A stretch of 63,522 nt of DNA, counting the filler, from Octopus bimaculoides (Eukaryota): NCBI RefSeq assembly GCF_001194135.2. It is 5 parts of 4 records of this genome, joined end to end, with 100 filler letters (N's around TTAATTAATTAA, not from the genome) between each part and the next. Parts side by side here need not be neighbours in the genome. Positions count along the whole stretch, not along the records: positions 1 to 11,810 come from NC_068983.1; positions 11,911 to 28,518 come from NC_068984.1; positions 28,619 to 38,987 come from NC_068988.1; positions 39,088 to 54,085 come from NC_068983.1; positions 54,186 to 63,522 come from NC_068989.1. One strand, written 5' to 3'. Both the position numbers and the translations under genes were made by a program. This document shows, piece by piece, positions 2,600-63,414 of the stretch (positions are counted from its first letter, which is position 1; each line of letters starts with the position of its first letter). Under the pieces are notes generated by a model. The model searched no databases, was not told the DNA's origin, and saw only the letters and a list, made by a program, of their open reading frames with translations.

Positions 2600-2810
2600 G
2601 GGAGAATTCACAAGAAAAAAACAAAAACAACAGACGAAAGCAGGTGGTGTTGAAGACAAATTGATGCATTTGTATAACACTCGGGAATTGAGAAAGTCTT
2701 TAACGTTTCGAGCCTACGCTCTTCAACGGAAAGGAACACGGGAAGAAACAAGGAGAGAAAAAAATGTGTGTAGTGGTCAGCGATCTATCATGGCGAATAT
2801 ATATATTCAC
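2600..2810 (-). mobile_element. ~200-bp non-coding hammerhead-bearing element (Penelope-tail/retrozyme-like), copy 1, flanked by (TA)n
   Basis: Reverse complement aligns over its length with 4520-4730. (TA)n on both sides. Confidence 0.75.
2698..2733 (-). ncRNA. Minimal type I hammerhead ribozyme variant (core CCGUUGA)
   Basis: 5'-CUUU CCGUUGA A GAGC GUAG GCUC GAAACGUU AAAG-3': 4-bp stem I, 4-bp stem II, palindromic AACGUU helix III. Core deviates at positions 4 and 6. Confidence 0.6.
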
Positions 2811-3599
2811 CATGATATATATATATATATANNNNNNNNNNNNNNNNNNNNNNNNNNNNNNNNNNNNNNNNNNNNNNNNNNNNNNNNNNNNNNNNNNNNN
2901 NNNNNNNNNNNNNNNNNNNNNNNNNNNNNNNNNNNNNNNNNNNNNNNNNNNNNNNNNNNNNNNNNNNNNNNNNNNNNNNNNNNNNNNNNNNNNNNNNNNN
3001 NNNNNNNNNNNNNNNNNNNNNNNNNNNNNNNNNNNNNNNNNNNNNNNNNNNNNNNNNNNNNNNNNNNNNNNNNNNNNNNNNNNNNNNNNNNNNNNNNNNN
3101 NNNNNNNNNNNNNNNNNNNNNNNNNNNNNNNNNNNNNNNNNNNNNNNNNNNNNNNNNNNNNNNNNNNNNNNNNNNNNNNNNNNNNNNNNNNNNNNNNNNN
3201 NNNNNNNNNNNNNNNNNNNNNNNNNNNNNNNNNNNNNNNNNNNNNNNNNNNNNNNNNNNNNNNNNNNNNNNNNNNNNNNNNNNNNNNNNNNNNNNNNNNN
3301 NNNNNNNNNNNNNNNNNNNNNNNNNNNNNNNNNNNNNNNNNNNNNNNNNNNNNNNNNNNNNNNNNNNNNNNNNNNNNNNNNNNNNNNNNNNNNNNNNNNN
3401 NNNNNNNNNNNNNNNNNNNNNNNNNNNNTATATATATATATATATATATGTATATATACATACATATAATTATAGGGTACATCCAGCACTCGCAAATGAA
3501 TATTCATTCATAACATGTACCAGAGTTTCTTGAATTATTTCAAGGCTTTATGTACTCACAATCAGACCGAAACACCGTCTGAGATTCCACGTCCATGAG

Positions 3600-3795
3600 C
3601 AATCAAAATAGCCATAATGTCCCCGCCCCCTGGTCGTGGACAGTGCTGCACAAACACTTTCGCAAGTGAGTAGACTTGGACAACGTGAAATAAAGTGTCA
3701 TGTTCAAGAACGTAAATCTACGCTCGGTTCAATAATTTGAAACCCCTGCTTTATGATTATGTGTCGAACACACCCTAACCACTAGGCCATGTACC
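3600..3795 (-). mobile_element. tRNA-derived SINE (family D), degenerate
   Basis: Minus strand begins ggtacatggcctagtggttagggtgtgttcgacacataatc (A-box-like). A related plus-strand head lies at 24960-25090. Confidence 0.55.
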
Positions 3796-4261
3796 TTCAT
3801 ATAATAAGCCTCTATATTTAGACAAGTTTGGAACTACTTTGATCATACATTAACCCGATCAGAGTTATTTTGAGGATGGAGATAATCAACAGAAACAAAT
3901 ATGTATTATACATAAACTGCCAAATACATAGGATGTATATAATTAACTATTATCAAATCGTGCCATTGCAAGCTTATAAAATTTAATCGGGAAGAAGGCT
4001 CTGCAGAACGGCAAATTTAAATGAGTCACAGTCGATCAAAATGTCATGAAATCTTGTCATCTGTAATTGGGTAAACTAATTTTACAGTCTTCATTTTCTT
4101 AGTAATATTATATTTTGGACTAATTCCGTCGAGGTCGACTTTGCCTTTCATCCTTTCAGATTCGATAATATAACGACCACTTGATCACTGTGGTCAATGT
4201 AATCGACCCCTATCCCTTGTATCAAACTTTGAAACAAATAATAATATTTTAGACTAAGACC

Positions 4262-4460
4262 ATGAGCTGGAAGAATAATTAGTATGCTGAGGAAAATGCC
4301 TAGCGGCACTTCGTCCGTTTTCATATTCTGAGTTCTGCCTAGGTCGACATTGCCTTTCATCCTTTAGGGATCGATAAAATAAATATCACTCGAGCGCTGT
4401 AGTTGGTTACATCGACTATATTTTCGCGGTCTCGCTGGCGTTGTGCCAACATTTGAAAAT
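4262..4460 (+). mobile_element. tRNA-derived SINE family B (CORE-like central domain)
   Basis: Contains gtcgacattgcctttcatcctttagggatcgataaaat, shared with many copies in the window. A further partial copy lies at 4110-4230. Confidence 0.7.
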
Positions 4461-4519
4461 AACTTCACACTTTTTGACTAAGGTGCGAACCAGCTGAAAC
4501 ATTACCACGCCAGACAAAA

Positions 4520-4730
4520 TACTTAACAATATTTCGTCCTAGATCGCTGACCACTACACATATTTTTTTCTCTCTCCTTGTTTCTTTCTGTGTTCCTTTC
4601 TGTTGAGGAGCGTAGGCTCGAAACGTTAAAGACTTTCTCTATTCCCGAGCGTTATACTAATACATCCATTTGTTGTTGACACCACCTGTCTTCGTCTGTT
4701 GTTTTTTCGTGAATTCTCCAATATATGTAT
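4520..4730 (+). mobile_element. ~200-bp non-coding hammerhead-bearing element, copy 2
   Basis: Inverted homologue of 2600-2810, ending in (TA)n/(TG)n. Confidence 0.75.
4596..4631 (+). ncRNA. Minimal type I hammerhead ribozyme variant (core CUGUUGA)
   Basis: CUUU CUGUUGA G GAGC GUAG GCUC GAAACGUU AAAG. Stems I and II pair perfectly and helix III is palindromic. Position 6 is U instead of A. Confidence 0.65.
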
Positions 4731-4804
4731 ATATGTATGTGTGTGTGTATATATATATGAAATCCTGAATTTAGTTCACGGATTCGCAGTTCTACATTTG
4801 ACCT

Positions 4805-4853
4805 GTGGTCAGCGGATTTCCGGGGTCCCCTGACAACAGGTTGGGAACCACTG
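4805..4853. mobile_element. hAT-like MITE end (solo terminal inverted repeat)
   Basis: gttgggaaccactg at 4840-4853 is the reverse complement of CAGTGGTTCCCAAC, a typical hAT/Charlie terminus. No partner end found. Confidence 0.35.
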
Positions 4854-61319: not shown

Positions 61320-61890
61320 CTCTCACTCTCTAACGCTTATACACACACATACAGACACACTTACATACACAAACAGACATACACACACATACACAGACAC
61401 AGATACACACATAAACACACACACTCAAAAACACAAAGTGTGTATGCATATATATGCATGTCTAAACATGTCTCTCTATTTCTCTCTCAATATATATACA
61501 TACATATATATAAATATATATATATATATATATATATATATATATATATATATGAATATATATATATATATACACACACACATATATATACACATATATA
61601 TATATATACATATACATACATACATACATATATATATATGTATATATATATATACATACACACACACACACACACACACATACATATATATATATATATA
61701 TATATATATGTATGTATGTTTGTATATAACACACTTTGTGTGTACATATATGTATATATATATAAATATAAATATATATATATTCGCATGTTTATGTCTA
61801 CATATGTATGAGTCTATATAAATAAATAAATGAATGTGTGTGTCTATGTGCGTGTATGCATGTATGCGTGCATGTGTGTGTGTGCGTTTT
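61320..61890. repeat. Compound (CA)n/(TA)n/(TACA)n microsatellite field
   Basis: Direct inspection. Confidence 0.9.
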
Positions 61891-62124
61891 GCGTTCGTCT
61901 CGCAAGAGACTTGATCTGAGACCATGTGTTGAAATTGTATCATTCATATAGCGAAAGTCATTTCATTCATCTAATGACATTTAAAACTTATAAAGTTCAC
62001 TTTTCCTAATATTTGTTGAAATGTCTAATTTTTCGTGGCACCACTGCATCGTTTTCACTGCCTCAAATGATATTTACGTCTTTTGTTTTGTTTTCCTCCA
62101 TTGCATATATTGTTACATGTACGT

Positions 62125-62270
62125 AACTGTGTGGTAAGAAGTTCTCTTCTCTTCTCAACCACATGGTTCCGGGTTCAATCCAACTGCGTGGCTCCTTGGA
62201 TAATTGTTTTCTACTATTGCCTCGGTCCAAGCAAAATCTTATGAGTGGATTTGGTTGACAGAAATATATA
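62125..62270 (+). mobile_element. SINE family A head (a second partial head at 62745-62830)
   Basis: ctgtgtggtaagaag...aaccacatggttccgggttcaatccaactgcgtgg...gtgagtggatttgg. Confidence 0.8.
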
Positions 62271-62979
62271 TTAGATGGCGATTGTATTTTACTACTGTAT
62301 CAGTTGCGTACACCGAATTGCTTATACCAATCGGTGGGTGCACGCAGCGCAGGGAACATATCATTCCCTGTTTCCCAGATCCCAGGCGACAAACTCCTCT
62401 AAGCACGTGACTGGCGGCGAGTACATGTGATTGAGAAAGTCCAACAGGACCGATGTGCACCGGGCGTTCTTGTTAGCAAATGTCGGTACGATTTGCTATA
62501 TTCATCTACTTCCGATTTACATTTTTTAAATTTTTGTTTTAAGCAACACGCGTTCATGTGAGATTTTTATCTCGGGTAAAAATCGAAGGAACTTGCCAGT
62601 GTACGATTTAACTCAGGGGTTCTCAGTCATTTTCCCGTGAACCCCTTTGATTCCTATTTTACTTTGATGGGCCCCTAAAGCCATTCGATGTTCAAAAAAG
62701 TTCTATTGTATTTTTATAATTATATAGGCGGAGGCGTGGCATCTTGGGAAGGTGTCTTCTACTATAGCCTCGGCGTGACCCAAAGCCTTGTGAGTGGATT
62801 TGGTAGACGGAAGCTGAAAGAAGCCCATCGTGTGTATGTGTGTATATATATATATATATATATATATATATATATATATATATTAAATCTCTGAGCGAGA
62901 TATAAACAGTAGCAATAAAGAATCGTAACATAAAATTGTCAAACGAGTGAAGTGAGTTTTCCTCACTAGCTGGTGATTA

Positions 62980-63026
62980 ACACACGCTGAAGACGGGTAA
63001 CCACTCAGAAACTCGAGTCCGTGTGT
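62980..63026 (+). ncRNA. Type I hammerhead ribozyme with intact catalytic core
   Basis: ACACACG CUGAAGA CGGGU AACC ACUCA GAAAC UCGA GUC CGUGUGU: 7-bp stem I, canonical CUGANGA and GAAA, palindromic ACUCGAGU helix III, GUC site (cleavage predicted after 63019). Stem II has a terminal C-A mismatch. Confidence 0.78.
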
Positions 63027-63180
63027 ATCACGTAAGGCTAGAGATGGGAGCGATAATCTCCCCTCGCAAATACTAATTGGACACAGAATGTGTGTCGTTA
63101 GACAGCTAGAAAAGACGTCTTCCTGGTGCTATATACGTCAGTAGCACTGCCCGTGTAGGGCCCCACATTTGGTTGGCAAT
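62980..63180 (+). mobile_element. Hammerhead-headed ~200-nt element, copy 2, ending in (TA)n
   Basis: Homologous to 56781-56985, with no ORF. Confidence 0.7.
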
Positions 63181-63325
63181 TATATATATATATATATATA
63201 TATATATATGTATATATATATACGTATATATATAATACAGTTCTATATTTAAGGGATGAGGAATTATTTACATTATTTACATTATTTACATTTGACGGAT
63301 ATTCGTCCTCATCTTGTTTGTTGTT

Positions 63326-63371
63326 AACACAACGTTTCGGCTGATATACCCTCCAGCCTTCGTCAGGTGTC
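63326..63371 (-). ncRNA. Minimal type I hammerhead ribozyme with intact core, within a PLE-tail-like element (63240-63410)
   Basis: Minus strand GACAC CUGACGA A GGCUGG AGGGUAUA UCAGCC GAAAC GUU GUGUU: 5-bp stem I, 6-bp stem II, palindromic AACGUU, GUU site (cleavage predicted between 63331 and 63330). Confidence 0.82.
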
Positions 63372-63414
63372 TTGGGGAAATTTCGAACCTGGGTTCTCAT
63401 TCCTATCGATGTTA

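Follow-up and report, generated by a model that had tools for sequence, protein, structure and literature searches.

A LINE at a position-conserved site beside the hammerhead ribozymes of retrozyme-like repeats in Octopus bimaculoides, and the mixed origin of its hammerhead motifs

Hammerhead ribozymes in animal genomes have been described from Penelope-like elements (PLEs), which when truncated leave single hammerhead motifs (PMC4209133), and from metazoan retrozymes of the non-LTR kind (LTR, long terminal repeat), which, in the parts consulted of Cervera and de la Pena 2020 (PMC7229834) and Li et al. 2026 (10.64898/2026.07.22.740005), are noncoding units of ~350 nt with a type I hammerhead and a proposed dependence on PLEs. 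A separate literature concerns target-specific long interspersed nuclear elements (LINEs) of the Tx1 clade, namely, Tx1 in Tx1D, Tx1-Mar, Tx1-8_Crp, Tx1-9_AMi, and Keno (Kojima 2015, PMC4494074, consulted in part). The present analysis concerns a window of 63,522 nt from Octopus bimaculoides (assembly GCF_001194135.2), in which a first-pass annotation had noted seven hammerhead motifs, and the repeat families to which these motifs belong. The motifs are real but mixed in origin. With moderate confidence, we favor a reading in which three families (A, B, and E) are likely truncated PLE ends; four (C, F, G, and H) are likely copied in trans by a PLE; and a LINE, likely inserted in a site-specific manner, occupies a fixed site in C, G, and H and from then on likely moves together with the ribozyme tail. 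Families G and H lie outside those of the first-pass annotation and were found behind LINE ends.

The major evidence for the LINE site came from an unbiased junction search with the last 586 bp of the LINE, the site itself being excluded. Forty places were scored and 39 were read, 5 of them without a readable end. Of the remaining 34, 29 abutted the site of one of the repeat families (22 in C, 4 in G, and 3 in H), and 22 led straight into a hammerhead; this share exceeds the criterion of Kojima 2015, in the part consulted, of one target type in >20% of flanks with duplication. An exact-pattern count of junctions gave 1 match, the pattern being too tight. The junction lay 18 to 19 nt before the hammerhead core in G, in H, and in subfamily C1, and it was blurred by up to 3 nt in subfamily C2 by an A-rich end. 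The C, G, and H sites have no evident common sequence. Duplications of 11 to 16 bp were present on both sides of inserts in C (L101, L103, L105, L275, and L282), G (L261 and L263), and H (L266), and since they extend over the 5′ strand of stem I, the hammerhead downstream is left whole. Copies of family F showed no LINE. The LINE ends located elsewhere (L235, L267, L268, L271, and L277) included one in (TC)n; another, at L267, precedes what may be a decayed hammerhead containing a near-palindrome of 10 nt. No Rfam match was obtained in 16 off-target loci.

The LINE encodes an ORF1 with a zinc knuckle and ZCCHC3-like look-alikes and an ORF2 with RVT_1, zf-RVT, and a weak Exo_endo_phos match, so that the APE, reverse transcriptase (RT), and zinc-binding C terminus of ORF2 were all found. 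Names were attached to only 3 of the 120 homologues listed, one being annotated as a TX1 protein, at 36% identity, and by sequence likeness the element is probably of the L1/Tx1 type. In ORF2, the ratio of nonsynonymous to synonymous changes (pN/pS) was 0.28 to 0.35 for shared changes versus 0.69 to 0.84 for singletons (p 4e-8 to 0.06), and the APE and RT motifs were mostly kept. ORF2 was thus under purifying selection during subfamily divergence, and the enzyme was therefore needed for targeting, for movement of the composite, or for both.

The site also holds shorter inserts. Two C loci continue into an open reading frame with a zinc knuckle and ZCCHC3-like features, and a 1.6-kb ORF1-only cassette ending in AATAAA lies in C between two copies of an 11- to 16-bp piece of the unit. 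The long C form had been considered a single captured gag-like gene, and this was dropped on finding other insert types at the same site, namely, other cassettes and full APE-RT-zf-RVT elements, also as arrays separated by the site. The insert types found at the site number at least three, and they occur there in arrays (L114/L203, L117/L201, L205, L264, L266, and L279). For the ORF1-only cassette, no selection was seen within C composites (pN/pS 0.73 versus 0.56, p 0.6); across subfamilies, selection was present (0.22). By summed contig depth in one DNA-like run, the repeat was roughly ten times as deep as the cassette, which is a crude indication of a predominance of empty units. As a separate observation, ORF1-only cassettes at L113, L109, L140/L144, and L148 lay in head-to-tail arrays without a C site between them, at targets that look like the 5′ untranslated regions (UTRs) of related elements.

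The HeT-A/TART arrays of Drosophila are made of gag-only and RT-encoding members placed head to tail, with the promoter supplied by the upstream unit. The octopus LINE arrays resemble them in combining gag-only with RT-encoding members and in the proposed upstream-unit promoter, and differ in being nontelomeric and closed by a hammerhead. With the target-specific Tx1 LINEs, as described in the part of Kojima 2015 consulted (PMC4494074), the octopus LINE shares an APE-RT architecture with a preference for a multicopy nonautonomous element, duplications of ~15 bp, and tandem insertions separated by the duplication. It differs in that the target is a ribozyme-bearing retroelement within which the site varies in sequence yet holds its distance from the core, in that ORF1-only cassettes use the same site, and in that 5′-truncated copies point to hitchhiking, which was tested for SINEU-3 by the same logic (PMC4494074, same part). 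The Terminons and other cargo between PLE terminal repeats (PMC6431247, consulted in part) likewise have foreign coding sequence moved between hammerhead-bearing repeats; here, the cargo is instead a LINE with its own RT and endonuclease, placed at a defined site.

A motif resembling the U2 promoter was present ~65 nt upstream of the junction. Of 30 U2 loci, seven, judged by eye to be likely true genes, had TCAGTnnnTGTA at −57 to −59. The string A[TC]CAG was found 59 to 68 nt before the junction position in C1 (8/29), H (11/27), and F (11/23), truncated copies included, and at that position in none of 70 A, B, and E loci, the background being 1.75%. The full motif scored well in two of three G loci and moderately elsewhere. 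By U2 spacing, transcription would start 6 to 7 nt before the LINE junction and not at it. The LINE itself was beside U2 in none of the 30 U2 loci.

Whether the LINE reached these sites repeatedly or descended with them was addressed by comparing both parts of the composites, and both processes, repeated insertion at the site and movement of the LINE with the ribozyme tail as a unit, are likely. Repeated insertion is supported by the use of the site by three or more insert types, by duplicated site copies that in C2, G, and H agree with the repeat family of the locus, by insert types that are scattered over the C subfamilies and intermixed on the repeat tree, by the weakness of the Mantel correlation given below, and by L281, where a LINE of the C clade lies within a G repeat at a different offset. 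The insert types, the duplicated site copies, the intermixing, and L281 also speak against a single ancient LINE insertion inherited as a composite, in which the fixed distance would reflect descent and the arrays recombination. Such a history would accommodate the relatedness of the G and C tails, the similarly placed hairpins of C, G, and H, the supported clades formed by the H- and G-associated LINEs, and the weakly positive Mantel test given below, and we consider it improbable. Cassette and repeat distances gave a Mantel r of 0.19 (p 0.15, n 12), and no age correlation of the repeat and LINE parts was seen, these distances being crude owing to deletions.

Inserts with the site on their 5′ side all started at the full-length 5′ end. 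The upstream half of the site was present in none of 17 truncated copies (12 C-associated LINEs and 5 cassettes), 3 of which abutted an inverted tail or inverted composite; later deletion is possible in individual copies. Because the 5′-truncated copies lack the upstream half of the repeat, the LINE and ribozyme tail are likely one moving unit.

The repeats hosting the LINE, together with F, fit noncoding hammerhead units of 320 to 360 nt that are retrozyme-like in size and content and carry scars of the PLE type. The C copies continue at both ends into the same sequence, as in a permuted unit, and the unit periods were 351 to 358 nt (C), 324 to 343 nt (F), and 313 to 339 nt (H); the G unit is known from L262, L263, and L285 only. 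Inverted partners placed tail out were found in 13/30 C, 10/24 F, and 13/30 H copies, and the C and F copies of the window each have one. More-than-unit copies were seen in 4/30 (C), 11/24 (F), and 4/30 (H), and the 3′ ends fell at several TA-rich points, often on (TA)n. The sampled sets of C, F, and H held partial tandems only, whereas the criterion for retrozymes in the consulted part of Li et al. 2026 (10.64898/2026.07.22.740005) asks for a pair of complete hammerhead-bearing units in succession; a pair of same-strand hammerheads occurred at L272, L275 (LINE between), and L316 (deleted unit). The core of H has a U3-A8 pair, a natural covariant (PMC4209133; PMC3088659, the latter consulted in part). 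Tandem organization, for which the first-pass annotation had proposed a test, was observed in partial form in C and F and was absent from A, B, and E (0/75 loci). Relative to the consulted parts of the retrozyme reports (PMC7229834; 10.64898/2026.07.22.740005), the differences are that C, F, and H are mostly dispersed copies of 0.6 to 1.5 units with inverted partners and not long arrays, that no PLE with a matching pLTR was found in the 85 loci searched, that C, G, and H host a LINE, and that a U2-promoter-like motif is present, LINE insertion not being mentioned there.

On these grounds, C and F, with G and H, would likely be copied in trans by a PLE enzyme. Transcription of the unit would begin from a small nuclear RNA (snRNA)-type promoter in the end of the preceding unit, so that only more-than-unit copies would be active. 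The RNA would be cut by paired ribozymes, and nicked (TA)n may then prime the resulting tandem or circular RNA where it is rich in U/A. The LINE would gain the promoter of the repeat and a multicopy safe site, and read-through RNA of LINE plus tail could be copied by the same pathway as empty units. Since the searches turned up no PLE whose 3′ end is that of C, F, or H, mobilization by a Penelope RT, as proposed in the first-pass annotation, is inferred from architecture. Same-family PLE frames were present upstream of none of 30 C, 25 F, and 30 H loci, with one weak match in H; these 85 loci came from unbiased searches in which the top 40 of thousands of places were scored. Two PLEs were met in passing: L111:5600-7500 is a decayed Neptune-type PLE ending in (TA)n, and L115 is Hydra-like; in the searches made, neither showed a tail of the C, F, G, or H type.

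The choice of driver is balanced differently by different data, the PLE in trans being favored by the scars and the LINE itself by the sharing of 3′ ends and the missing PLE. The LINE's own ORF2 protein could move both the composite and the empty 340-nt units, which would be short partners with its 3′ end, empty units and arrays arising by RT jumps between copies of the duplicated site. The predominance of LINE ends that run into the repeat (29/34), the truncated LINEs without the upstream half, single insertions with one empty and one filled unit (L006, L027, and L275), and the selection on ORF2 would all agree with this, as would the lack of a PLE partner. Inverted tail-out partners, partial tandems, and (TA)n targets are, however, features described for PLEs (PMC8557442, consulted in part), and the inverted partners recur in PLE family E (9/25). 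Furthermore, F has the same scars and no LINE seen, the PLEs recorded from octopus include Hydra and Naiad elements with a preference for (TA)n, and the sites duplicated between different LINE members resemble target duplications. We therefore regard movement by the LINE protein as unlikely. The same low standing is given to an obligate LINE-retrozyme partnership, in which the repeat would provide an snRNA-type promoter and ribozyme-cut ends, the LINE would find its site not by sequence but by where it lies with respect to that promoter or the ribozyme, and the LINE RT, not a Penelope RT, would spread both.

Families A, B, and E are likely the 5′-truncated ends of autonomous PLEs because longer copies have a Penelope-type GIY-YIG gene upstream. 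Their 3′ ends are fixed, and their 5′ ends are variably truncated. Upstream of A on the same strand, a Neptune-type GIY-YIG frame was found in 2/25 loci, L049 having an RT thumb, a CxxC linker (Zn finger), and the GIY-YIG frame and L051 the GIY-YIG frame. The corresponding frame was found for B in 1/25 loci (L186) and was 59% like that of A. For E, the end of a GIY-YIG open reading frame runs without a gap into the hammerhead-bearing tail, and 17 of 19 loci found with this end continue into the E hammerhead. The E frame at L303 (209 amino acids) has GIY-YIG look-alikes at 0.95 to 0.97, and its nearest atlas clusters have GIY-YIG in 12 to 28% of members; Pfam gave no match for the endonuclease (EN) frames of the A, B, and E loci. 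The PLE assignment was made from partial copies, no full-length copy being among those read. Family E is probably Penelope/Poseidon-like, by motif. The clade names Neptune and Poseidon are provisional for A, B, and E, resting on motifs such as those in PMC8557442; the motif strings of A, B, E, G, and H were not found in the supplement of that paper, in which line breaks may hide matches.

No tandem, permuted, or more-than-unit copy of A, B, or E was found among 75 loci, and tail-out inverted partners were confined to E (0/25 for both A and B). The octopus hammerheads match those published for PLEs in the short stem I, an extra nucleotide after A9 in A, B, and E, and the palindromic helix III; further likenesses are that most copies are single and stem from truncated PLEs, that pairs on opposite strands lie within a few hundred base pairs of each other, and that the U3-A8 variant occurs. 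The situation of A, B, and E is that of the truncated PLEs of PMC4209133. They differ from the published ones in the A6U core of A (20/24 sampled copies) and the U4C core of B (24/25, without stem I), as well as in a tRNA-like segment in the 3′ UTR of E. Because these core changes are fixed in the sampled copies, ribozyme processing of A and B is doubtful; changes at position 6 and U4C lower activity yet occur naturally, according to the part of PMC3088659 consulted. Family B (window 10019 to 10053; L176 to L200) is young, 13 places being identical over 218 bp, and spreads with the U4C core and no stem I, which suggests a ribozyme that may be dispensable or folded otherwise.

In family E (window 63412 to 63522, minus strand; L061, L065, L066, and L075), the tRNA-like segment, with A- and B-box-like motifs, and (TAA)n lie between the PLE stop codon and the hammerhead. 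Since many copies begin in or near this segment, a derivative resembling a short interspersed nuclear element (SINE) is possible. ARAGORN did not call the E head as a tRNA. The summed contig depth of E was very high.

The first-pass annotation had treated all five families as nonautonomous, ribozyme-processed elements that prefer (TA)n. This stood in part, C and F being noncoding units with PLE-type scars, and did not extend to A, B, and E, which have PLE coding sequence upstream. Its own refuting case, that the copies are 3′ ends of autonomous PLEs, probably applies to A, B, and E. Taken in full, the annotation's view would be served by the palindromic helix III and short noncoding tails of all five and by the TA bias of four. 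It is contradicted for E by the contiguous reading frame end already, and the absence of tandem or permuted forms, the altered A and B cores, and the lack of TA bias in E leave it very improbable. With a (TA)4+ run at the 3′ end as the measure and a background of 0.02 to 0.13, the bias was present in A (19/25), B (22/25), C (17/30), and F (11/25) and not in E (4/25); H had (TA)n at the 3′ end in 14/30. In the window, the TA tract of the E copy is merely common to the adjoining C copy.

Several results weigh against the reading favored here. Five of the 34 readable LINE ends lay at no recognized site, and in one G case the junction was nearer the core by 10 nt. Outside G, the resemblance to the promoter is partial, the best position weight matrix site falling in the motif interval in 8/28 C1, 4/26 H, and 1/17 F copies. 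Fresh targeted insertion was seen only for full-length copies, and ordinary site-specific insertion should often leave the upstream half that all 17 truncated copies lack. The 5′ site copy has a variant (CCCAC) in several C1 composites that empty C1 copies do not have. LINE and repeat distances were weakly correlated (Mantel r 0.33, p 0.018, n 15), and some codescent is therefore allowed. The 85 loci of the C, F, and H searches yielded no PLE having a 3′ end of the C, F, G, or H type, and the hammerhead listed for Hydra-1_Obim differs from those of C, F, G, and H. In A and B, a scaffold gap lies between the EN frame and the tail in every case (L049, L051, and L186). Finally, no piles of read starts or ends were present at the C or E cleavage sites, for which such libraries are a weak test.

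The RNA data were three raw RNA-seq runs, ~6% of each being read. A 1966-nt C composite drew 134 to 192 reads per run and E drew 1903 to 2722, in both directions in each case, C being low and E abundant. At L103 (place 1598), eleven reads of one run join the 5′ half of C and the site to the start of a second cassette type, and therefore transcription crosses a composite junction in at least one case.

Five stretches make up the window, and the motifs fall in stretch 1 (G000:C3, ~96.33 Mb) and stretch 5 (G000:C9, ~53.60 Mb), two unlinked stretches on different contigs and not one region. The copies found are as follows.

2601..2797, minus strand: family A copy that stops at (TA)n and is likely the 3′ end of a PLE of the Neptune type; its motif, 2698-2733, has the core altered at two positions.
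4540..4720, plus strand: family A copy, 5′-truncated; motif 4596-4631 with the A6U core common to 20/24 sampled copies.
9895..10148, plus strand: young family B copy whose 5′ end falls in a gap, likely the 3′ end of a further PLE of the Neptune type; motif 10019-10053 lacks stem I and carries U4C.
44351..44444, plus strand: weak family H tail fragment (72%, E 8e-7), absent from the first-pass list.
56204..56335, minus strand: family F partner copy, inverted and 5′-truncated.
56353..56740, plus strand: family F partial tandem with a period of 324 nt; hammerhead 56551-56592.
56780..56984, plus strand: family C (subfamily C2) copy truncated inside the core; incomplete hammerhead.
62879..62935, minus strand: family C inverted tail fragment beside (TA)n 62843-62883.
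62944..63180, plus strand: family C (C1) unit, 5′-truncated; hammerhead 62980-63026 with the core intact.
62968..62983, plus strand: empty LINE site of family C, consisting of the 11 to 16 bp that elsewhere flank LINE inserts in duplicate; its start is 19 nt ahead of the core.
63181..63234, no strand: TA tract common to the tail-to-tail C and E copies.
63235..63522, minus strand: family E copy, a PLE 3′ UTR with part of the tRNA-like segment, (TAA)n, and an intact hammerhead 63326-63371.

Short LINE ORF2-like fragments at 30386-30475 (plus strand, 63%) and 16820-17110 (minus strand, 25%) lie away from the hammerheads.

All seven motif strings noted earlier were present at their positions, and the claim of at least five distinct families holds with A (2698 and 4596, which are one family, 89% alike), B (10019), C (62980, with 56782 in a subfamily), E (63326), and F (56551). 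Each family search scored 40 places and fetched 25 to 30, so that every family is sampled by the copies most like the query. The numbers of first-look candidates in G000, not to be read as copy numbers, were 1602 (A), 2123 (B), 1779 (C), 1244 (E), and 393 (F); H had 2300 candidates.

The folds were tested with a type I descriptor comprising the core (CUGANGA / GAAA / UH), stem II, a palindromic helix III, and a stem I of at least 4 bp. Without a core change, 62987+ and 63366− pass; with one, 56555+ and 4600+ pass also. The 4 window matches with at most one core change compare with a mean of 0.36 (maximum 2) in 100 shuffles; with two core changes, 7 matches compare with a mean of 2.26, 7 being reached in 3/100 shuffles. 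The seven type I folds claimed earlier thus reduce to four, 2729− having two changes, 10023+ no stem I, and 56782+ a start inside the core; the core is perfect in only two window copies, and the 56782 copy lacks half of it. Their identification as minimal hammerheads of the PLE type was borne out. The palindromic helix III was confirmed, with self-duplexes predicted at −3 to −14 kcal/mol, and could pair between two copies. Among sampled cores, the strict descriptor was passed by E (25/25), C1 (9/29), F (5/24), A (0/24), and B (0/25), and the majority strings of C1 and F have an intact core. No hammerhead family was among the best 150 of 196 Rfam matches of the window (E ≤ 5), which were microsatellite-driven miRNA matches.

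PLE hammerheads, retrozymes as PLE dependents, and Tx1 LINEs that prefer nonautonomous transposons are already in print. A LINE that occupies and travels with hammerhead retrozymes at a position-conserved, sequence-divergent site was not found in the literature searched, a scope excluding subscription papers, Repbase, and Dfam; the main text of PMC13282606 does not mention ribozyme, hammerhead, or retrozyme. The hammerheads themselves were to be expected, and it is the link to the LINE that matters. Genomic hammerhead counts mix dead PLE stumps with true short elements. As to which enzyme moves animal retrozymes, the composite offers a marked cargo and two named candidates. As to how target-specific LINEs change target, it offers three unrelated site sequences at equal spacing to a ribozyme core and a promoter-like motif, and this equal spacing at unrelated sites provides a direct test of sequence reading versus positional or RNA guidance.

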